DNA from: Octopus vulgaris | Lineage: Eukaryota | NCBI GenBank assembly: GCA_951406725.2 | Contig: OX597827.1 | Span: 30,938,001 to 31,002,000, forward strand | Direction of reading: 5' to 3' | DNA: 64,000 nucleotides | Shown: positions 1 through 63,679 of the stretch, piece by piece | Layout of the letters: the number at the start of each line of letters is the position of its first letter | How positions within the stretch are numbered: position 1 is the first letter of the stretch | The notes under the pieces: model-generated | Database searches by the model: none | What the model was told of the DNA's origin: nothing | Seen by the model: only the letters and a program-made list of their open reading frames with translations | Made by a program: the position numbers and the translations under genes

Positions 1-199
1 TCATATTTTATACCATCGAAATGCATTTGTATTCACATACATAGCTACGCATACGTAAACAAATATACATACGTTGCACACCGTAAACATACATCCAATG
101 AAATACATATAAATATACGTATACATCAATTCACATATACACAAGCATGCATCCATGTGAATGTACATACTCTCACATACCGTCAATAAATATATTGAT

Positions 200-3100
200 C
201 GTCTCACTCAGATCGTATATAGATAGGGTATTTGTTAAGGAACGAGATATGAATAGCGTTAGCTGTCCACAATTTTCTGTTGTGCCTTACACGGATCACA
301 AACTTGTGACGTGTGAGGTACATGTAGATAAATGCCATAGACAGGGTCTCGGGTACTGGAAAATGAACAGGTCTATTTTGACTTGTGAAGCTTTCCGTAC
401 CCGGATTAAGGAATTAGTCCAGAGGGCATTATGTGGCACCATCATTAATAATAGATGGTGGCTCGCCCTCAAAAGAGCCATCCGTTTGGAGTCCATTAGA
501 TTTAGCAAGCAGCTAAGTTTAGATAGGACTAGAATAGAGGGCGATTTAGTTAAGAACTTAGACGAGGCAATGGAATCTGGCTGTACATCCGGAGTGTTGG
601 CAGCGAGAACGGTCTTGTACCATCACCTCAACGCCAAGCATGTGGGATGTAGAGCCAGAGCTAAGTTACGTGCAGGGAAACGAGAAGGTATTAATGTTGC
701 CGGATGGGCCCGTCGTGAGGAGAGTCAGAAGGGCAAAAAGTCTTCTATTAAGTCTTTAACTGACGAGCAGGGTCGCAAGATCTATGGACAGGAGGAGATG
801 CAGAAGGTCTTTCACCAGCATTTCGCCCGGTTGTTTGGGGATGGCGGTTCGCTCGAGCGAGGGGAGGCCTTAAAGGACTTCCTAGCCGGTGGGCCTCGGC
901 TCTCGACACGTGAGGCGGAATGCTGTGAAGGATCGATCTCTCCCGCGGAGGTAAGAGAGGTTATGGCCTGTTGCGCCGGGGAAAGGTCGCCGGGGTTAGA
1001 TGGTCTGCCCTATGAGTTCTATTGTTGTATGCCGGACTTGTTCGGGGATATACTGGCGGGCGTCTATGCAAACTGGCAACAGAATGGGAGGATTCCCAGT
1101 TCTGTGAGCCGGGGAGTTGTGACGCTGGTCCAGAAAGACCCGAGCAAGGGGGATAGTATTAGTAATTATAGGCCCATAACTCTACTTAATGTAGAGTTTA
1201 AGATTTTGGCCAAGGTGTTAGCAAAAAGGTTGACGGCTGTCGTGGAGAAACTTGTGGGGAAGGCACAAACATGTGCAATCCCAGGCAGGTCGGTCCAGGA
1301 TAATCTTCACCTTCTCCGCTACACTATAGACATTAGCCGGCAAAGGAGGGGCATTGGTCCATTTAGACCAAAGTAAAGCGTTCGATAGGGTAGACCATCG
1401 GTACTTGGCGGCGGTCCTCGAGGCGGCTGGGCTGGGCCCTGGTTTTTGCGGGTGGATCTCAGCTATGTACAGCGGCATCAAGTCCACAGTCCAGATAAAC
1501 GGTTACCTAACGGAGCCGTTTTCAATCAAGCGTTCAGTTTGTCAAAGGTGTCCCTTGTCCCCGCTCCTGTATGTTTTGGCTCTTGAGCCATTGCTGCGGA
1601 AGTTGGAGAAGTTGGGAGGCAATCCTAATGAAATCGGATGCGGTAAGCCTGTTTCTGCCTATGCGGATGACGTCACCCTCATCGTGTCCAACGAAGCACA
1701 GCTACCACGTGTAGAAGGTGCTCTCCGAAGATACGAAGCGGTGGCAGGGGCAAAAGTTAACAAAGACAAGTCCACCGGTTTGCGCCTCGGCACCTGGAGG
1801 AACAAGCCGATATCGTCCAGTGTTGTTGGACACTGGACAGATGGTCCTGTTAAATTGCTCGGAGTTTGGTTTGGTTCAGACTCCCAGACGGAGAAGAATT
1901 GGAGCGAGGTAGCGAACAAGGTAGAAGCTATAGTACGGAAGTGGTCCGGAAGGCATCTTTCCTTGAAAGGGAGGGCGGAGGTGGTACAGGTGTTTATAGC
2001 CTCTGTCATCACCTACCGCCTGACCGTCGTGCCTTGCCCCGATTCGTGGTTAAGCAAGTTGGAACGACTCCTTTTCCGCTTTTTGTGGAGGGGAGGAAAG
2101 CCACTTGTGAGACGCTCCGTGTGTTGCCAGGAACCGCTAAAGGGTGGGCTGGGGATGCCTTGGCTAATGATGCGCAGGCATGCGTTGAGGCTGAGACATC
2201 TCTGGTGTCACCTGGAGAGTGATAAGGTGTGGAATCCGCTGGCAGAGGAATTCTTCCCGCGACCGGCCTCTATGGAGAGATTTAAAACCCGGTTTCATTA
2301 AAAGACGTAACCTGACTTTATGGCAGAAGGAGTGCCGACAGGCACTCTGGCTGATCCACGAGGTGGGCAAGGCCGGCAGCGGGAATACCACCTCGGTGTT
2401 CTATAGAGGGCTGGTAGAGGCAAAAAATGACGACGTCCTAGGAGGGGCTCTGGGGTTCGACGAGAATCAACTCTCCAACCTGTTTAAGAAGACTTTCAGG
2501 CCGGGGTATTTGGACAATTACCAAAAATCCTTGACCTGGCAGTGCTATAGGAATGCATTACCTGTTCGCGATAAGTTATCCAGGTACGGAATGTCAGTGC
2601 CACCGACGTGTCCAAGATGTCGGTTGGACGATGAAACCGTTCAACACGCTTTTGTACAATGTCGGGAGCTGTCAAGCTTGATAAGTTACGTTGAACACGT
2701 GTTGTCGCATCTGGGACGAGCACAGCTGTCGGCTGGATCTATGATAAAGATGATACCGCCAACTGGACTCTCAAATGAAGATAAGGCTTGTTTTTACTGT
2801 ACGGTGGCAGTATTGAAAGAGTGTGTGTGGAGAACCAGAATGGAAGGTTTAGTGACAGGGTCCTTTGTCTCTGGTCCCGGTTTGTTAAACTACTTCAGAT
2901 ATCATCTGAAGAGCAAGATGGGGTTGGAGAAGAGGAGCCTGCCACAGAAAGAATATGTGAAACGTTGGAAGGATGTGATGAGAAAGGTGGGTATTAGTAA
3001 CCCAGCTTAATCATCAAAGAAAGGAAAAATTAGTTGCTGGGCCTTATAGGCTGCCGGGTTCAAAATTCGGAACCTGCACTTCTCCCCCTTTTCATTTTAA

Positions 3101-3330
3101 CATATGTTATGTTTTCTAATGTTATTAAAAAAAAACGCACTAAAGTTCTCGTTATAAAGGCAAAAGTAAGCCAATAATTCGTTTAAAGGCAAAAGTAAGC
3201 CAAGTTTTCGTTTGTGTCATATTATAACTAAATTTTTAAGTTTCATTCGAACTCTCATAACATTCTTTGTAATTGTTTGTCTTGTTATGTCCAAATCTAT
3301 GTAAAATCGTATGATTATAATAAAGATTTT
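200..3330 (+). mobile_element. 5'-truncated, frameshifted Tx1/L1-clade non-LTR retrotransposon (end of APE endonuclease, RT, C-terminal zinc knuckle, 3' UTR)
   Basis: Three consecutive ORFs (147-1376, 1354-2301, 2219-3010) carry TDHKLV and GYWKMN (APE end), SPGLDGLPYEFY, NYRPITLLNVEFKILAK, LDQSKAFDRVDH, AYADDV, GGLGMP and CPRC..ETVQHAFVQC. AATAAA at 3319-3324. The 3' boundary is uncertain. Confidence 0.9.
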
Positions 3331-3335
3331 ACCTT

Positions 3336-3416
3336 CAGCTAGCAGGCCTTTGCTACTCTAGACTGATGATGGGCAAGACCCAGAAACATGCATGTCTCTA
3401 GATGCAGGCCTAGCTG
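3336..3416 (+). ncRNA. Type I (minimal) hammerhead ribozyme, canonical core
   Basis: Stem I tctaga 3357-3362/3397-3402; core CTGATGA 3363-3369; stem II tggg/ccca with loop caaga; GAAA 3383-3386; palindromic stem III ACATGCATGT; GTC cleavage triplet ending at 3396. Stem I extends through aggcct/aggcct and cagctag/ctagctg. Confidence 0.88.
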
Positions 3417-3729
3417 TTGGGAGTGTTTGTCTCCCCTTCGTAAATATATAAGGACACAGGAAATGTGTCACGGCCGACAGGAAGAGTCGATGCTTCCTAG
3501 GGCTAAATAGCGGTGGTGTAATTCTGTTACGGGACTGTCACGTTAAATTGACAGTATACAACCACTCTCTATATATATATTCTTTCAATTTCTGTTTCGC
3601 TTTCAATCTATCTTTCATTTTATCTCTATAAAACTAATATTTAAAAATTCTTTTCATTTGTTTATTTTCCTGTAATTTAAGCTAACGACTGAATTAGAAA
3701 TATAATCGTAATTAGTTTAGAATTATATA

Positions 3730-4310
3730 TTTCTTTCATTTCCTCACTCTCTTCTACCTCCTCTCTCCTCCCTTACATATATTCCCCACTTCCAGCTCCT
3801 TTCTCCCTTCCTTTATCTCTCTTTACGCTTACCCTTTCCCTCTCTCTTGCATATCTTACTCTTTTTCTCATCTCTCTCCCTCCCTTTCATATCCTCCTCT
3901 TCTCTCATTTCTCTTTCCTTTCCATCTCACATCTACCTCTCCTCTCGTCACCTCACCCTCTCTCTCATATACTTCTCATTCGCCCATTCTTCTCACTCCG
4001 TCTCTCCCTCTCTCTCACATCCTTCATCTTGTCTCTCCTTCACTCTGTCTCTCTATCTCTTGCTATCCTCTCCCTCCCTCTGTTTCTCTTTCTCTTCCCC
4101 TCCTCTCCTTCACTCTGCCTCTCTTTCTCTTCCCGTCTTCTCCTTCACTCTGTCTCTCCTTCTATTCCCCTCCTCTCCCCCTCCCCGCCCCTATCTCTTT
4201 AACACACCACACCCCCTTGCTTTCCTCCTATCACCCTCTCGATTTCTTTCATAGCACCTCTCTCTTTCCTTCATATCTCCCTCTCTCTTTCCCTATTTCC
4301 CCCCTCTGTG
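3730..4310. repeat. CT-rich polypyrimidine low-complexity tract
   Basis: About 580 bp that is almost entirely C/T, with (CT)n runs, directly upstream of the CR1-like LINE. Confidence 0.85.
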
Positions 4311-7300
4311 TTTCTCTGTCGCTACCTGTTTCTATGCTTCATTAGCTCTCTAGCCTCTACTCCCCCTCTGGACTTCAAAACGAAGATGACACCAAAGTGG
4401 GAAAAGAAAGAGTTAAATCTTCTGCTAAGAGCATGGATGATTGCTAGTGGCGATCCGCTGAACAACATCATCACTGCCGCACTAAAGAACAATGGATTTC
4501 ATAGAACCATTGACTAAACAAAACGAAAAAAAGGTGAATTTATCCGGTCTTACATGCCTATAAGACCACACATCAAAACATTGGATAACATAATTGAAAA
4601 TTATTGTGGCAAGGCTGATGAGGATGAAGAGGACGAAAAAGAGAAGGAACCCGGAAATCTCTGTGATCCAGGGGTTCCTCAGGAAAATGGATCACCTACC
4701 CCGGATAGGGGAGCCAAGGGAGCAGAAATCGGAAGCCCCCTTACCAGTGGTCCTACAAAGAAATGAGAAATTAGAAAAACAGAAGAAAAAAGGAAGGACC
4801 GAAAACAAAAATAAGGAGGGAAAGGGAAGAAAAGGCAAAACAACCAAAGCTGAAACCCCAACCCACCACACAAACAGCAGAGAACCCCATGGAGGATCCA
4901 ATGCCACCCAGTTCACTTCAGGAAAGAAGAAATCTGGAAGACACTGAAGAACCTGTAAATTCTACCTGCGGGGCAAAAGCTGCTGGTTCGCCCACCCGAC
5001 ACCCTGCCAGAACTTCAGGAGACTCAAGGAGAAGAGCTTTACTGAGGGAAGACAAGAAATGTCTCCCAGGAAAACTTTCAGAAAAGAAGTGTGCTCCTCA
5101 GATGTTCTCTGCAACGCAGCAGCTGAGCAAGAGTCTTTTTTATGCATGGCGCAAAGAATTGTTCGGCAACTAACTTGGCTACACCAAGCACAGAGAAGGA
5201 ACCCTGCCTACCACTATGCAAGACCACCACAGTCAACAGACACGGGATGGTCTCCCCTAATGCCTGCACAGCCGTCACCCCAATACTTTTACTAAATATT
5301 GGGGGCCTGTTGCATCAAAATAGAAACAAAATTTCTTTCCTGAGAGATCTTACTGCATGCAATCAAGCCCTATGCATAGCACTCGTGGAAACTTACCTCA
5401 GCCCTGATATAGAGGACGCAGAAGTACACATACCAAACTATGCCTTACTGTGAACAGACAGAAGGGAAAGGAGCCATGGTGGAGTTGCTGTATACATCCG
5501 AGATGACCTCACATCCCAGGTCTTAATAACATACTCAAATTCGGTATGTGACACTCCAATTGTATACATAAGACTACATAATATAGTCATATGCAATACA
5601 TATTGCCCACCGGATGCCCCAAACCACACAGGCAAGATTGCCTCACAAGAATTAAAGAAATCCTCATGAATCTGGAACACCACATGACCATATTTCTTAT
5701 GGGTTATTTCAACTTCCCCAACTTGAAATGGCCCGAAGGTTTCATACTCTCAGGAATGAATCATTGCAAGCAAGTACAGGTGGAGTCCCTGCTCAACCTC
5801 ACCAACGCCTTATTCATGGAGCAAGTTGTACTCAAACCAACTAGGGCGAATAACATTTTGGATCTCTGCTTCACGAACAATATGGACATCATTCATGATG
5901 TGAAAGTGACACCGACATTAGTTTCGGATCACAACATAATAGAGCTGTCTATGTTTGGGCCAAAAGTAACCAGAGACATACAGCCTAAAGGAAGCACCCG
6001 AAATCTCTCCAATCTGAACTTCCACAAAGCATATTGGAAATCGATCCACAAAGAGATCCTCAGAGAGGACTGGCTGGAATGTCTCTCCACACCAGACATT
6101 GACATGAAACTAGAATGTTTCATGTCTTCTGTGCAAGCAGTATGCCAGAAATATGTCCCAGAGCACAAGGCCAAAACAAATAGGTGCAAGATTCCAAGAG
6201 ACAGGAAGATCCTCATGAGACAACAGACGAAGGTTGCAAATCGTCTCAACCAACATCGCAAAAGTAGCAAAACGTCCTGCCTAAAAACAACACTGATGGA
6301 GATCGAAAAAAGGCTGCAACAATCCTATGTGAGGGAGAAAGCAGACAAAGAAGCCTGGGTTACAAAAAACATTAAATCAAACCCAAAGGCCTTCTTTCAT
6401 TACGCGAAAGAAACTGTCAGTACACTACAAGATAGGACCCCTCCTCCAAAAGGATGGCTCCCTCACAGACAGTCCAACTAAGATCAGTGAGATGCTGAAT
6501 GACCAGTTCAAAAGTGTCTTTACCACCCCATTGGAACACAGACGAGTGAACGAACCAGTGGACTTCTTTGCCGCCTCACCTATAACCAGCGAGGCGGTTA
6601 CAATAGAATGTATTGACATTAGCGAAGATGTCCTACTAGCCATAGATGAAGTGGACACAAACTCAACTGCTGGTCCAGATGGTTTCCAGCAATCGTCCTC
6701 AAAGCGTGTAAGCATGCCCTGGAAAAACCCCTCAAGATTCTCTTCCAGAGCTTTCTTGCGAATGGCAAACTGCCAAGCAAGCTGAAGGAGGGAATAATAT
6801 GCCCAATACATAAAGGGGGAAGTAGATCAGATGCCAAAAACTATAGGCCTATCTCTCTGACTTCACACATCAGCAAAGTCATGGAACGGATAGTCAGAAA
6901 GAAACTAATCGCATTCCTTGAGGAAAATAACTTGCTGAGTGATACCCAGCATGGTTTTCGACCAGGTAGGAGCTGCCTGACCCAGCTCTTACAACATTAT
7001 GACTGGGTGTTGAGGCAGTTACTCAACAAATCAAATATGGACGTAATCTACCTTGATTTTGCAAAAGCTTTTGACAAGGTTGATCATGGTATGATAAGCC
7101 ACAAACTGCATGACCTCGGCATAGCTGGAAAACTTGGAGTGTGGTTACATGACTTCCTGAAAGATAGGAGTCAGGCAGTAGTGGTTAATGGAGCCACCTC
7201 TATGAACACACAAATAGTGAGCGGTGTTCCACAAGGCACTGTCTTTGGACCACTGCTTTTTATAGTGGCCCTCTCAGATATGCCCTCAAATGCCCGGATA

Positions 7301-8283
7301 GCCACTCTGGCAAGCTATGCAGACGATACGAAAGTCTCACAGAAAATACAGAAGCCCAGCGATGTTGCACACCTGCAGCAGAAGTTGGACTCAATCTACA
7401 GATGGGCTGAGGATAATAATATGCAGTTTAATGCTGAAAATTTCCAGGCCCTGTGCTACCAGCATCCAAAACTTAATATTAAACTTACAGGATACACTGG
7501 TCCACAGGGAATTTCAATCCCAGATCCGAAGTCTGTGAAGGACCTGGGTATCGACATGAGTGATGATGCCTCTTTCCGAGTGCATATTACCAGGATGGCG
7601 ACAAAGTGCAGACGACTGGCTGGATCCTAAGAACATTCAGAACCAGAGATAAGGAAACCATGATGGTCCTCTGGTGGACATTCGTCCTCAGCCGCCTGGA
7701 TTACTGCTCACAGCTATGGTCACCCACCAGCGTGAAATTAACAGTGGACCTTGAAGCAATCCAGAGAAGATTCACAAAGAAGATTGTCTCTTTGCAACAG
7801 CTCAGCTACTGGGAAAGGTTGAAACAGCTAAGACTCTACTCCCTGGAGAGAAGACGGGAGAGGTATGCAGTAATATATGTCTGGAAGATCCTGGAAGGAA
7901 TTGTGCCAAATTTTGGCATTGTAAGCTACACCAATGCTAGAACGGGACGACACTGCATAGTGCCAAAGATCCCAGCAATGCCATCACGCTTCAGGACTAG
8001 CTTCTGCAACAGCCTGGGTTTCAAGGGCCCACAGCTTTTTAATATTCTCCCAAAGAGTCTGAGGAACCTGCACAAAGTAGATGTAGCGGTTTTTAAATCA
8101 AAGCTAGATATCTTCTTGTGGAGAGTCCCAGATGAACCTACCTCTCGGCAAGAGGTGCAAATGAGAGTAGCTATATCAAACTCCATTCTTCACCAAATGC
8201 CACATATTAGAGGAGGTTCTTCGTAATAACAATGTAGCACAAAACGGCGGTGCATCAGCATGGCCACAGCTCTGAGCTGAAAA
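4310..8283 (+). mobile_element. Near full-length but disrupted CR1-like LINE (5' ORF remnant, APE endonuclease, RT, 3' tail)
   Basis: Fragmented ORFs with LLNIGGL/IALVETYL, FNFPNLKW, PTRANNILDLCFTN, SDHNII, QHGFRPGRSCLTQLL, YLDFAKAFDKVDH, SGVPQGTVFGPLLF, YADDT, LYSLERRRERY. The tail ggcggtgcatcagcatggccacagctctgagctgaaa is followed by (TA)n. Confidence 0.88.
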
Positions 8284-8331
8284 TATATATATATATATAT
8301 ATATAAATATTCATATATATATTCATATATA

Positions 8332-8377
<46 letters not shown>

Positions 8378-8403
8378 TATATATTTATATATATATAGTA
8401 TAT

Positions 8404-8459
<56 letters not shown>

Positions 8460-8708
8460 GGTCCGTTCCATGCTGTTTGTACGTTTTCGTTTCTCGTTGA
8501 GTTCTACGTCTATTTGTGGTGTCCTGTACACACGTATATATATTTATATATGCATGTATATATACATGTAGATGTAGGTACGTACATATATGTTTGTATG
8601 TATGCATATATTTTATTTATTACACTATTGTATGACTGAGCGCCTTCGCGTCGATTCGATTCGATTGGTTTGGTTTGGTTTCGTTTCTTCTTCTTCTCTA
8701 AGCTGGTT

Positions 8709-8829: not shown

Positions 8830-10402
8830 ATCATCATAATCATCATCATCATCATCATTTAGCATCCGCTTTCCATGCTAGCATGGGTTGGACGGACACG
8901 AACGGATGGTGCTTTTTACGTACCACGGGCACGAGGCCATTCGGGGTGGCGCTGGCAACGGCCACATTCGGATGGTTCTTTTACGTGCCACCGGTACTGG
9001 TAACTTAGCTGCAATTTCCATTGATCAATTTCGATTCTGATTCTGATTCTCACTTGCCTCAACAGGTCTTCACAAGTAGAGTTTTGTGTCCCAAGAAGGG
9101 AAGGTATGCATAAGTGGGCTGGCTACATCCCATGTAGAAGGCCACGGGTTATGGTCTCACTTGTCCTGCCGGGTCTTCTCGCGCACAGCATACTTCCAGA
9201 GGTCTTGGTCTCTAGCCATTTCCTCAGTGAGACCTAAAGTTCGAAGGTCGTGCTTCACCAACTCGTTCCAGGTTTTCCTGGGTCTGCCTCTTCCACAGGT
9301 TCCCTCAACCGCTAGGGTGTGGTACTTTTTCACACAACTGTCTTCATCCATTCTCGCCACATGCCCGTACCAGCACAGTTGTCTCTCTTGCACACCACAT
9401 CTGATGCTTCTTAGGTCCAGCTTTTCTCTCAAGGTACGTACACTCTGTCGAGTATGAGTACTGACATTACACATCCATCGGAGCATACTGGCTTCATTTC
9501 TTGCGAGCTTACGCATATCCTCAGCAGTCACGTCCCATGTTTCACTGCCATGTAGCATGGCTGTTCGTACAGACGCGTCATACAGTCTGCCTTTTACTCT
9601 GAGCGAGAGGCCTTTTGTCACCAGCAGAGATAAGAGCTCTCTGAACTTTGCCCAAGCTATTCTTACTCTAGCAGTTACACTTTCAGCACACCTGCCCCCG
9701 CTGCTGACGGAAGCTATCAACTATTTCTAGTTTTTCTCCCTGGAAAGTGACAGAAGTTGGTCTCAGAGCATTTTCAGTGTTTATTGTTCCTGAGCATCTG
9801 CCACATACAAAAACCATCTTCATAGTTAGCCTTCCTTTGACATTGCTGCACCTCTTATGTGTCCATAGCTTACACTTGGTGCATCTTATAGAGTTTCTAC
9901 CTACACCTTTTCTACAGATCGAGCAGGGCCATCTACCTGAAGGCGTTTGTGATTTGTCTACCTTCCTACTGATTATGACTTTGGTTTTAGCTAGATTGAC
10001 TCTAAGGCCCTTCGATTCTAAACCTTGCTTCTACACCTGAAACTTCTCCTCCAGTTCTGATAGTGACTCAGCAATTAGAGCGAGGTCATCAGCATAGAGG
10101 AGCTCCCAAGGGCATCCTGTCTTGAATTCCTCCGTTATTGCCTGGAGGACTATGATAAATAGGAGGGGGCTGAGGACTGAGCCTTGGTGGACCCCTACCT
10201 CTACTCAGAATTCTTCACTGTACTCGTTGCCAACCCTCACCTTACTAGCAGCGTCCCTGTACATGGCTCGCACAGCTCTCACTAACCATTCATCTATCCC
10301 TAGTTTCCTCATTGACCACCATATGAGGGATCGGGGGACCCTGTCGAAGGCTTTCTCCATGTCAACAAAAGCCAGGTACAGGGGCTTATCTTTGGCTAGG
10401 TA
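8830..10402 (-). mobile_element. 5'-truncated RTE-clade LINE with (GAT)n tail
   Basis: Minus-strand ORFs with [41 protein letters not shown]. The 3' tail reads (cat)n ttagcatccgctttccatgctagcatgggttgg on the plus strand. Confidence 0.92.
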
Positions 10403-47988: not shown

Positions 47989-50900
47989 CATCATCATCAT
48001 CATCATCATCGTTTAACGTCCGCTTTCCGCGCTAGCACGGGTTGGACGGTTTGACCGGGTCTGGGAAGCCAGGGGCCGCTCCAGGCTCCAGTCTGAATCT
48101 GGCAGAGTTTCTACGGCTGGATGCCCTTCCTAACGCCAACCACTCCGTGAGTGGATTGGGTGCTTTTTACGTGCCACCTGCACAGGGGCCGGAGGGTCCG
48201 GCATCGTCACGATCGGATTCGAGCATTTTAACGTGTCAGCGGCACGGAGGCAACGAGGTCCGGGGTACTTTGGGGATTGGGGTATTTTGGGGATCCAGGG
48301 TACTTTGGGGATCCGGGGTACTTTGGGGATCCGGGGTACTTAGAATGGGTAGGGGGGTACTTAGAATGGGTAGGGGGTACTTAGAATGGGTAGGGGGTAT
48401 GTGGAATTGCTGCAGAAAGCAGCCCGGGTCTTTGTAGTCACAGCATATCTCCAGAGATCTCGGTCCTTCGCCATTGCCTCAGTGAGGCCCAATGCTCTGA
48501 GGTCATGCTTGACCACCTCATCCCATGTCTTCCTGGGTCTACCTCTCCCCCTGATACCTTCAACTGTTTGGGAGTGGCACTTCTTCACACATCTCTCTTC
48601 ATCCATCCGCAGCACATGACCATACCATCGCAAGCGTCGCTCTTGCACACCACATCTGATGCTTCTTATATCCAGCATTTCTCTCAGGATACTTACACTC
48701 TGTTTTGCGTGCACACTGACACTACACATCCAGCGGATCATGCTAGCTTCATTTCTTTCAAGTCTACGCATGTCTTCTGCAGTCACAGCCCATGTTTCAT
48801 TACCGTGAAGCATGGCAGTTCGCACACATGCATCATATAATCTACCTTTTGCTCTGAGGGAGAGGCCTTTTGTTGCCAGTAGGGGTAGGAGCTTTCTGAA
48901 CTTTGCCCAGGCTATTCGTATTCTAGTGGTGATACTCTCTGTGCATCCACCTCCGATACTAACTTGGTCTCCCAGGTAGCGGAAACTATCAACTACTTCT
49001 AGTTTCTCTCCCTGGAGTGTGATGGAATCTGTTTTCTGAGTGTCTGTTGTGTCTATTGTCCCTGTGCATCTGCCGCACATGAAAGCTATCTTATCTGTTA
49101 ATTTCCCTTTAATGTTGCTGCACCTCTTATGTGTCCATAACTTACATTGGGTGCATCTTATGGAGTTTCTACCTGTACCTTTCCTACAGGTTGAGCAGGG
49201 CCACCTACCCGAGGGGATGTGTGTTGAGTACCTCTTGCTGCTTACTAATACTTTGGTCTTTGCTACATTTATTCTAAGGCCCTTTGATTCCAACCCTTGC
49301 TTCCATACCCGAAATTTCTCTTCTAGTTCCGGTAGTGATTCTGCTATGAGAGCTAGGTCATCGGCATAGAGGAGCTCCCAGGGGCATCCCGTTTTGAATT
49401 CCTCTGTTATTGCTTGAAGTACTATGATGAACAAAAGGGGACTGAGGGCTGAGCCCTGGTGCACACCTACTTCTACTCGGAATTCTTCACTATATTCGTT
49501 GCCAATCCTAACCTTGCTAACAGCCTCTCTGTATAGAGCCTGTACAGCCCTTATTAGCCATTCTTCAATCTCCAGTTTCCGCATCGACCACCAGATAAGG
49601 GAATGGGGAACCCTGTCAAAGGCTTTCTCCAAGTCTACAAAAGCTATGTAGAGGGGTTTATCTTTAGCTAGGTACTTCTCCTGCAGTTGTCGGACCAGGA
49701 ATATAGCATCAGTGGTGCTTCTACCTGGTACAAAGCCGAACTGCATTTCATCTAAACAAATTCTCTCCCTAATGAGATTGGTTATGACCTTCTCTGAGAC
49801 CTTCATCACCTGGTCCAACAGTTTGATACCTCTGTAGTTATTTCTATCTAGAGCATCACCCTTACCCTTGTAGCAGTTGACTATGGTACTGCTGCACCAG
49901 TCATTGGGTATGGCTCCATTGTGAACTACCTGGTTTACAATGCGGGTGACTATGGCATGGCCCACATAGCCAGCTGTTTTAAGCATCTCAGCAGTGATTC
50001 CTGATAGGCCAGGGGCTTTGCCTGGTTTCATATCCTTAATTGCCTTATCTACAAGGGAGCTGTCTATTCGGGTAGCTGGTCCCTCTACTGGGTCAACATT
50101 TGGCAGGCTCTCCTCCTCCCATTCATTCTCCTCATTTAGCAGTCTTTCATAATGGCTTCTCCAAGCCTCTTTCTTTTCACTAGTAGTAAAAGCAAAGTAA
50201 AAGCAAGTGCCCCATCATCCATGCGGACACATTTCTCTCCTATAACATCGCTATTTTCTCTGACACACTGTCTGGCAATCCGAAATACTTCAGCTCTTTG
50301 ATCCTCGCGACGCTGGACATTGGCAAACTTCTTCTTTTCTGCTACATCTTTGGCAATGTATACCTGCCGCCCAGCCTCCTTTTGGCTATCTGGTACAGTT
50401 CCCTGCTGCCCCCCTCCTTCCAGGCTTTCCAGGCCCGTCTCTTTTCACAGATGGCTTTATCTACTGCACTATTCCACCACCACGTAATTCTAGGTCTGGA
50501 AGGGATTCTTTGCACCATCCACAGACTTGGTCTGTGGCACTCAACAAGCTGTCCCGTAGGAATTCCCAGCTACCTTCTATGTCTGACGTCTGAAGCTCCT
50601 CTTCCCTCTCATCAAATTTCTTGATGAGTATGTCCCTAAATTTCTTGACCATGCGAAGGGTTCTTTAGCCTCCAAATCCTTCTTTTCTGGATTGGTTTGT
50701 TTCTTGGAGTCCTTCTGGCCTCAAGCTTAAAGTCACTGATGATTAGTCTATGCTGAGGGATACATTCTTCACCCGGGAGGGTCTTTGTATTCAAGAGCAA
50801 CCCTGCATCCCGTTGTCTGGTGAGGATGAAGTCTATTTGGCTAGCGGAGTCTCCTGACTGATAAGTTATAAGGTGGCAGACTGGCTTCTTGAAGTTAGTG

Positions 50901-61312: not shown

Positions 61313-61531
61313 GTACTTGTTTCAGTCATTTGACTGCGGCCATGCTGGAGCACCGCCTTTAGAGTGGTGAAAGAGTACAGCAGGGATCACCATCCCCTGC
61401 CGGAGCCTCGTGGAGCTTTTAGGTGTTTTCGCTCAATAAACACACACAACGCCCGGTCTGGGAATCGAAACCGAGATCCTACGACCGCAAGTCCGCTGCC
61501 CTAACCACTGGGCCATTGCGCCTCCTATATA

Positions 61532-61690
<159 letters not shown>

Positions 61691-61700
61691 GTATATATAT

Positions 61701-63679
61701 ATAACTACAGAGGTATCAGAGGTATCAAATAACTACAGAGGTATCAAGCTGTTGGACCAGGTGATGAAGGTTACAGAGAGGGTCATAGCCCAACTAATTA
61801 GAGAGAGAGTTAGTTTAGATGAGATGCAGTTTGGGTTTGTGCCAGGGAAAAGTACTACTGATGCTATATTCCTGGTAAGGCAGCTGCAGGAGAAATACCT
61901 AGCCAAAGATAAGCCCCTGTACCTGGCTTTTGTTGACATGGAGAAAGCCTTCGACAGGGTCCCCCGATCCCTTATCTGGTGGGCAATGAGAAAACTAGGG
62001 ATAGATGAATGGTTAGTGAGAGCTGTGCGGGCCATGTATAGGGACGCCGCTAGTAGGGTGAGGGTTGGAAATGAGTACAGTGAAGAATTCCGGGTAGAGG
62101 TAGGGGTCCACCAAGGCTCAGTACTCAGCCCCCTCCTATTTATCATAGTCCTCCAGGCAATAACGGAGGAATTCAAGACAGGATGCCCTTGGGAGCTCCT
62201 CTATGCTGATGACCTTGCTCTAATTGCTGAGTCGCTATCAGAACTGGAGGAGAAGTTTCAGGTGTGGAAACAAGGATTAGAATCGAAGGGCCTTAGAGTC
62301 AATCTAGCTAAAACCAAAGTCGTAATCAGTAGGAAGGTTGACAAATCACAAACACCTTCAGGTAGATGGCCCTGCTCGATCTGTAGAAAAGGTGTAGGTA
62401 GAAACTCTATAAGATGCACCAAGTGTAAGCTATGGACACATAAGAGATGCAGCAATGTCAAAGGAAGGCTAACTAGGAAGATGGTTTTTGTATGTGGCAG
62501 ATGCTCAGGAACAATAAACACTGAAAATGCTCTGAGACCAACTTCTGTCACTTTCCAGGGAGAAAAACTAGAAATAGTTGATAGTTTCCGTTACCTAGGT
62601 GACCAAGTCAGCAGCGGGGGCGGGTGTGCTGAAAGTGTAACTGCTAGAGTAAGAATAGCTTGGGCAAAGTTCAGAGAGCTCTTACCTCTGCTGGTGACAA
62701 AAGGCCTCTCGCACAGAGTGAAAGGCAGACTGTATGATGCGTGTGTACGAACAGCCATGCTACATGGCAGTGAAACATGGGCCGTGACTGCTGAGGATAT
62801 GCGTAAGCTCGCTAGAAATGAAGCCAGTATGCTCCGATGGATGTGTAATGTCAGTACTCACACTCGGCAGAGTGTAAGTACCTTGAGAGAAAAGCTGGAC
62901 CTAAGAAGCATCAGTTGTGGTGTGCAAGAGACGTTTGCGCTGGTATGGTCATGTGGCGAGAATGGATGAAGATAGTTGTGTGAAAAAGTGCCACGCCCTA
63001 GCGGTTGAGGGAACCTGTGGAAGAGGCAGACCCAGGAAAACCTGGGACGAGGTGGTGAAGCACGACCTTCGAACTTTAGGTCTCACTGAGGAAATGACTA
63101 GAGACCGAGACCTCTGGAAGTGTGCTGTGCGCGAGAAGACCCGGCAGGACAAGTGAGTCCACAACCCGTGGCCTTCTACATGGGATGGAGCCAGCCTACG
63201 TATGCATACCTTCCCTTCTTGGGACACAAAACTCTACTTGTGAAGACGTGTTGAGGCAAGTGAGGATCAGAATCGAAATCGATCAATGGAAATTGCGGAT
63301 GTGCTACCAGTGCCGGTGGCATGTCGAAACTCTGCTTGTGAAGACCCATTGAGGCAAGTGAGGATCAGAATCGAAATCGATCAATGGAAATCGATCAATG
63401 GAAATTGCAGATGTGTTACCAGTGCCGGTGGCATGTAAGAGAACTTTCCGTTTCGCGACCGTTGCCAGCACCGCCCCGTTTCGTGTCCGTTGCCAGCCTC
63501 GCCTGGCCCTCGTGCCGGTGGCACATAAAAAGCACCATCCGTTCGTGGCCGTTTGCCAGCTCTGTCTAGTGGTTGGCGTTAGGAAGGGCATCCAGCCGTA
63601 GAAACACTGCCAGATTTGACTGGGCCTGATGAAGCCTTCTGGCTTCACAGACCCCAGCAGAACCGTCCAACCCATGCTA

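Follow-up and report, generated by a model that had tools for sequence, protein, structure and literature searches.

A hammerhead motif behind a broken Tx1-like LINE belongs to a separate, high-copy repeat in octopus

INTRODUCTION

In a 64-kb stretch of Octopus vulgaris DNA (the window, here and below, is the whole of this stretch), a type I hammerhead motif stands a few nucleotides behind the 3′ UTR of a Tx1-like LINE. The LINE is broken, and the hammerhead belongs to something else: a separate repeat that is far more abundant than the Tx1 tail. We hold this with high confidence, and the confidence extends jointly to the motif itself, to the broken state of the Tx1 copy, to the extension of other repeat copies beyond the ends seen here, and to a contig in which the repeat is joined head to tail. 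What kind of repeat it is and how a truncated copy of it came to adjoin a dead LINE are questions of graded answers: the repeat is likely to be a retrozyme or a Penelope relative, and the chances are about even that the two elements simply landed in the same TA-rich site.

THE HAMMERHEAD MOTIF

The motif occupies 3336-3416 of the forward strand. Its parts follow the type I order and its core conforms to CUGANGA, GAAA and NUH: inspection of the sequence places CUGAUGA at 3363-3369 and GAAA at 3383-3386, and a GUC triplet ends with C17 at C3396, after which cleavage is predicted. Stem I, for which about 20 bp with bulges had been noted, pairs 3336-3362 with 3397-3416 through 19 Watson-Crick pairs in four blocks (6+3+4+6). 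Stem II (3370-3382) has four pairs (3370-3373:3379-3382) closed by the loop CAAGA. Stem III runs from A3386 to U3395, with 3 bp enclosing UGCA, and this region (3386-3395, forward strand) is the perfect 10-nt palindrome that had been noted. A U on the 5′ side of loop 1 and an A on the 3′ side of loop 2 make the usual tertiary contact of hammerheads, as described in PMC2632901; judging from the letters, both are present, as U3403 and A3378. A proximal helix I of 6 bp, a helix II of 4 bp and a short palindromic helix III match the canonical metazoan hammerheads as PMC4209133 describes them, although helix III usually has 1-2 bp there and has 3 bp here. The pair 10.1-11.1 is U3370-A3382 and not the G10.1-C11.1 that the same source calls “highly conserved”, and Rfam hammerhead models do not match the motif, either at the gathering score or at E ≤ 10. 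The original reading of an “intact canonical hammerhead” thus stands for the core nucleotides, all of which are present, and needs qualification for the base of stem II and for the Rfam models.

Could such a motif arise by chance? A loose hammerhead descriptor, for which 0.01 matches are expected by chance per 64 kb, has 3336-3416 as its sole match in the window; when the window was shuffled 100 times with its dinucleotides preserved, 0 shuffles gave an equally good motif. The folding z of the segment is just -1.96 (8 of 200 shuffles fold equally well), and the hammerhead fold, at -23.8 kcal/mol, lies 3 kcal/mol above the minimum free energy predicted for the monomer, in which stem III has a pair probability of 0.01. 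Stem III is predicted at +1.7 kcal/mol as a hairpin versus -13.3 kcal/mol as a duplex of two copies; the hammerhead is therefore predicted to act best as a dimer, as hammerheads with a short palindromic stem III do according to PMC4209133. The dimer-acting motifs of amphibians have a short palindromic helix III like that of the octopus motif. By its sequence, then, 3336-3416 is a genuine type I hammerhead motif, with self-cleavage a prediction only.

A SEPARATE, HIGH-COPY REPEAT

Contigs of four public runs (X1-X4), which represent at most four studies and carry three organism labels, were aligned to 2600-3700 at 80% likeness. Depth is summed over contigs and is not a copy number, and statements about individual alignments concern those listed, namely 24 of 952 loose ends, 32 of 10,122 pieces and 40 of 215 letter differences. 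Compared with the median bin of the Tx1 3′ UTR, where the summed depth in X1 is 0.7-6 thousand, the bin of the hammerhead core is 66, 40, 27 and 8 times as deep in X1-X4, and the whole repeat 140, 162, 127 and 76 times as deep; outer stem I (3349) is still 5.4, 3.7 and 4.2 times as deep as 3295 in X1-X3. Set against the ~40-75 of single diverged contigs in X1, depth leads by rough inference to thousands of copies. A step in depth across the contigs, which solves to 3399-3400 in three runs from three bins, hints weakly at cleavage; it may also be a ramp or the boundary of a subfamily.

Copies of the repeat extend beyond both ends of the one in the window. Behind 3568, 37 contigs in X1, 37 in X2 and 3 in X4 continue with similar letters; before 3350, three X4 contigs continue for a median of 153 letters that do not resemble the Tx1 tail. 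In one X2 contig, 3568 is followed by 22 letters and then by 3356, which makes a head-to-tail unit of ~235 nt, and these joining letters resemble the loose-end consensuses behind 3568 in three runs. Contigs also contain a back-step joint from 3517 to 3472 and three opposite-strand joints inside the repeat. Because depth is in excess, copies run past both ends and one contig is joined head to tail, the hammerhead is assigned to a separate high-copy repeat. The copy in the window (3333-3568, forward strand) is single, is truncated at both ends relative to other copies and is directly followed by a short (TA)n tract (3569-3581, forward strand); no second copy of it, or of the Tx1-like element, occurs within the 64 kb. 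The three hairpins and the tatataag (3445-3452) that had been noted downstream of the motif were all found, and the TATA-like letters sit where copies of the family carry indels (3443-3444). Multiple copies also exist of the neighboring stretch 3599-3700, which has a back-step joint of 74 nt.

The family appears to have structure of its own. Positions 3509-3518 (forward strand) are the 5′ arm of a helix whose 3′ arm, complementary to them, lies behind 3568 in other copies and is absent here; it was sought behind the next LINE and not found. Consensuses from X1 differ from the window and from X2 at two positions on both arms with the pairing kept, and these paired changes, which come from consensuses of different contigs, are a hint of a conserved 3′ helix. 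By eye, the letters behind 3568 have two potential pairings, one with 3509-3518 and one as stem I of the next unit, and this alternative is a possible switch that would block the ribozyme. Loose-end consensuses suggest, again by eye, a commoner subfamily in which outer stem I differs from the 3397-3416 of the window; at least two stem I subfamilies of the repeat seem to exist.

Where else does the repeat occur? Scans for its motif gave one chance match in a phage coding region among viral contigs and none in a second scan of these, no match in metagenomes and no match in prokaryote genomes; in G001, a prokaryote genome record that returns below, nothing scored better than E 0.3. A search of 1-8000 found no tRNA, and thus there is no sign of a tRNA-headed SINE.

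RETROZYME OR PENELOPE RELATIVE?

Non-LTR retrozymes are short, non-coding repeats of high copy number that carry a type I hammerhead. The copy at 3333-3568 resembles the non-LTR retrozymes described by Cervera and de la Pena (2020; PMC7229834) in its canonical type I hammerhead, short length, lack of coding capacity and high copy number. Non-LTR retrozymes occur as head-to-tail tandem units of 150-450 bp, and PMC7229834 gives 220-240 bp for those of corals, compared with the ~235 nt of the octopus unit, a size taken from the one head-to-tail contig; that the join is seen in a single contig weighs against the retrozyme reading. Li, Clavereau and Pollet (2026; bioRxiv 10.64898/2026.07.22.740005) derive non-LTR retrozymes from Penelope pseudo-LTRs and often find them as solo monomers. 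The octopus repeat differs from metazoan retrozymes in its U10.1-A11.1 pair, in the truncation of the monomer in the window and in having two or more apparent stem I subfamilies.

Penelope-like elements (PLEs) are described as having partial tandems, inverted copies, short tails and a (TA)n bias (Craig et al., 2021; PMC8557442). With the hammerheads of their pseudo-LTRs (PMC4209133, PMC8557442), the octopus repeat shares type I topology and joints of the partial tandem and inverted kinds, and a short extension in some copies and a (TA)n flank are common to both. Unlike metazoan PLE hammerheads, which PMC4209133 describes as minimal, with a long helix II and a poorly defined loop 1, the motif at 3336-3416 is of the canonical type. 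None of the 55 window ORFs scanned matches a GIY-YIG domain, and no PLE ORF is linked to the repeat. On balance, the repeat is likely a non-LTR retrozyme or a Penelope-derived element.

If the repeat behaves as known retrozymes do, self-cleavage after C3396 would cut its multimeric transcripts into monomers, working best in dimers held together through the palindromic stem III; the monomers may then form circles and return to DNA through a Penelope-type RT. Both cleavage and circle are predicted for the octopus repeat from its likeness to retrozymes. Cleavage would then define the RNA ends of the repeat, not those of Tx1. The words “octopus” and “cephalopod” are absent from the main texts of PMC7229834 and 10.64898/2026.07.22.740005, and literature listings gave no report of a cephalopod retrozyme or of a link between Tx1 and a hammerhead; the supplements of the retrozyme papers may list cephalopods.

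THE TX1-LIKE LINE AND ITS RELATIVES

The LINE in front of the repeat is a ruin. Its ORF2 remnant (198-3010, forward strand) retains the end of the endonuclease, the RT and zf-RVT, spread over three frames by two frameshifts, near 1340 and 2290; the copy is 5′-truncated, starting somewhere in 138-204, lacks ORF1 and has a TA/CA-rich 5′ flank. The 3′ UTR (3011-3324, forward strand) contains a 29-nt tandem duplication (3155-3212) and ends in AATAAA (3319-3324). A junction of 11 nt (3325-3335, forward strand) separates AATAAA from stem I, with the match to the repeat family starting at ~3333-3336; as had been noted, the hammerhead follows in the orientation of ORF2 with no poly-A between. In X1, one other diverged Tx1 tail matches as far as 3331, after which 8 of its letters are unaligned.

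The closest named relative of the ORF2 is an element from Argonauta hians (60%). In an RT tree of 43 rows, which came from one search and included no named Tx1 or L1 references, the window element, the Argonauta element and two unnamed proteins cluster at 96/97 support, and their clade joins a sister lineage with only 85/35. An intact relative (L089) has all Tx1 domains (APE endonuclease, RT and C-terminal zinc finger) and a zf-CCHC ORF1, and the query that recovered the sister lineage also retrieved an element inserted in a U2 snRNA gene, which matched too briefly to enter the tree; given this architecture and this retrieval, “Tx1-like” is a fair label for the sequence at 198-3324. The U2-inserted element (L145:3303-7000), which lies in a U1/U2/5S cluster of a second prokaryote genome record, is presumably Keno-like. 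The APE endonuclease, RT and zf-RVT are shared with the target-specific elements Tx1L, Keno, Kibi, Koshi and Tx1-Mar, and the zinc-knuckle ORF1 of the intact relatives is as in the Tx1 clade, as both are described in PMC4494074.

The sister lineage comes from an odd source. In G001, which is a prokaryote species-representative record, contigs C3-C19 carry arrays of intact Tx1 relatives (L082-L144), 51-53% identical to the window element in RT; 63 of the 65 loci retrieved are from this record. The arrays consist of head-to-tail units of 6.4-6.9 kb, of several families, with ORF1 and a 1155-aa ORF2. With their LINEs, an LTR element and microsatellites, the array contigs are likely host contamination, that is, animal-type DNA carried in a bacterial record, and they make a useful set for Tx1 array biology. 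Another locus of this record (L159, G001:C16:1-19000) contains tandem units of ~8.2 kb, in each of which two tRNA genes accompany a retroelement-like ORF. Viral contigs yielded no Tx1 relatives; the 35 of 64 metagenome parts scanned yielded 80 distant Tx1 loci, and the hammerhead descriptor had no match in 81 loci; these relatives are too distant to weigh much.

The window holds other LINE remains. A second broken LINE (4386-8280, forward strand), with endonuclease and RT matches, lies between a CT-rich tract in front and a long (TA)n behind (8281-8460); it may have divided the TA tract that follows the repeat. In the LINE ORFs at 9686-10030, 48364-50214 and 61440-62966, a PHD-like finger stands directly behind the RT, below the Pfam cut-off in two of the three.

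DOES THE HAMMERHEAD MAKE THE TX1 3′ END?

One of two explanations first offered for the junction was that the hammerhead defines the end of the Tx1 RNA: as the 3′ module of a Tx1 subfamily, it would be cut after C3396 and so make a 3′ end that replaces poly-A. The shared orientation, the 11-nt distance from AATAAA and the missing poly-A all invite this idea, and depth is compatible with every tail of a small subfamily preceding the motif. However, the motif is part of a much larger and deeper repeat family whose other copies extend upstream into letters of their own, and a further 170 nt of repeat follow it in the window, whereas the copy of an RNA cut at 3396 would end there. The Tx1 copy retains its own AATAAA, and stem III is predicted to be unstable in a monomer. 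The relatives point the same way: in sister-lineage copies, AATAAA is followed by just a short stretch specific to each family, A8 occurs within 30 nt of AATAAA in 0 of 112 of their 3′ ends (in redundant, overlapping loci), and the loose descriptor has one match in 65 loci and none between tandem copies. The missing poly-A is thus normal for the Tx1-like group, whose members without it are also without any ribozyme. Known LINE ribozymes offer a limited parallel. Those described for R2 and L1Tc (PMC6765202) are likewise self-cleaving motifs beside a non-LTR element (cleavage being predicted in the octopus case), but they are HDV-like, stand at the 5′ end and are part of the element; here a hammerhead stands at the 3′ end and is part of another repeat. 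A ribozyme-made Tx1 end is very unlikely, and the end of the Tx1 RNA would lie at the AATAAA of the element itself. In run X4, depth drops from 79 at 3295 to 6 at 3349; this drop, seen in one contig run whose RNA status is a guess, fits Tx1 molecules that stop before the hammerhead and is not counted as evidence.

HOW DID TX1 AND THE REPEAT COME TOGETHER?

If the hammerhead is not a part of Tx1, why is the junction so tight? The second explanation first offered, that this Tx1 family targets a hammerhead-bearing repeat, keeps its premise: depth and contig extensions place the hammerhead in a repeat. In full, the Tx1 endonuclease would cut members of the long-stem subfamily immediately before stem I; that subfamily is deep enough to supply the targets, and the upstream half of the repeat would have been lost later at this locus. 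There is ample precedent for LINEs of this clade choosing other repeats: the Tx1 targets described by Kojima (2015; PMC4494074), where a family is called target-specific if >20% of its flanks are one kind of sequence, include piggyBac (Tx1D), Mariner, LTR, Harbinger, U2 and microsatellites. The hammerhead repeat is not among the targets described there, and that of the window family is only putative.

The sister lineage also bears on targeting. Its elements stand in head-to-tail arrays, with a fixed stretch behind AATAAA in each family, and in three of six comparisons a piece of 13-18 nt present at the 5′ edge is also present behind AATAAA; this piece may be a target duplication or, less favorably for targeting, a terminal repeat of the element itself. 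Moreover, two of ten array edges with host DNA (four 3′ and six 5′) abut hammerhead-like motifs, compared with one other such motif in ~183 kb of host flank and 0.13 of that quality expected per 184 kb of shuffled flanks. (The 3′ side of L141 was dropped from the 3′ edges: another Tx1 copy follows it.) Both edges belong to one array, and the association was noticed after the fact. One motif (L091, 7445-7800) is antisense with stems of 5/4/1 and the other (L108, 796-891) sense with stems of 5/0/3; the two are on different strands and unlike in sequence, stem II is unpaired in one, and the fold of the other is no more stable than that of shuffles (z +0.73). The remaining eight edges have no hammerhead-like motif, and the window clade joins this lineage only at the support given above.

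Three further details of these flanks are of interest in themselves. At L091, a partial inverted second copy of the hammerhead follows 320 nt on, as in the inverted ends of Penelope; at L108, the motif lies within the 95 nt that separate (TA)n from the array; and at L155:3373-3410, 11 kb from any array edge, a small type I hammerhead is followed directly by (TA)n.

At the octopus locus itself, targeting needs a second event. Four matches to the upstream half of the repeat occur in the window, where 4.2 are expected, and none is near the Tx1 5′ end; nor is there a target duplication at that end (801 of 2000 shuffles are as good). The diverged tail with its 8 unaligned letters after 3331 also speaks against a fixed landing point. 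That a Tx1 family of octopods inserts at a single fixed position immediately above the hammerhead of this repeat, and that a sister lineage in another animal lands beside such motifs, is accordingly a tentative proposal, well short of an even chance; the same doubt attaches to what the two together would mean, a LINE lineage parasitising ribozyme-bearing mini-elements, and to the target-specific origin of the junction in the window.

Independent landing asks for less. A copy of the repeat would have inserted at the AT-rich end of a Tx1 element, with (TA)n following: this single insertion explains both the missing upstream half and the missing target duplication, and it fits the TA/CA-rich 5′ flank of Tx1, the (TA)n after the repeat and, again, the 8 unaligned letters of the diverged tail. 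The supplement of PMC13282606 gives 191 Mb of Penelope-like elements and 56 Mb of L1-Tx1 elements for O. vulgaris, so chance neighbors are expected now and then. Against it, a random landing need not leave a gap of 11 nt behind AATAAA or have the repeat start just above stem I, both of which are seen; the motifs at two of ten sister array edges, compared with one elsewhere in the flanks, count here too; and depth shows that most repeats have no Tx1 before them, not that most Tx1 tails have no repeat behind. We regard the arrival of both elements in the same TA-rich site as an evenly balanced proposition, and side-by-side landing is at least as likely as Tx1 targeting.

A third possibility is a composite origin or a rearrangement. 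A read-through RNA, comprising the Tx1 tail and the repeat, may have been copied as a unit from the 3′ end of the repeat into a TA tract, or the junction may be a product of recombination or assembly. The outer flanks on either side are rich in TA, and the 5′-truncated Tx1 has no upstream half of the repeat in front; none of the 32 contig pieces listed (of 10,122) spans the junction, and each run contains at most 0.45 of the words found in 2900-3600. Yet the outer flanks have only a 7-nt AT-rich word in common, and an earlier event that joined the two elements is required anyway. Such a composite or artefact is improbable, somewhat less so than the ribozyme-made LINE end.

CONCLUSION

The case for a LINE with a ribozyme-made 3′ end is mostly removed. 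Retrozymes and target-specific Tx1 elements are both already known. To the former, the octopus repeat adds a likely family of thousands of copies (a rough figure, from depth) in an octopod-type genome; cephalopods do not figure in the main texts of the two retrozyme descriptions. Stem II of the repeat starts from an unusual U-A pair, and there are signs of a conserved 3′ helix. If targeting is true, the targets of Tx1 endonucleases would extend to ribozyme-bearing repeats, and the repeat would offer a simple substrate for a cleavage assay.
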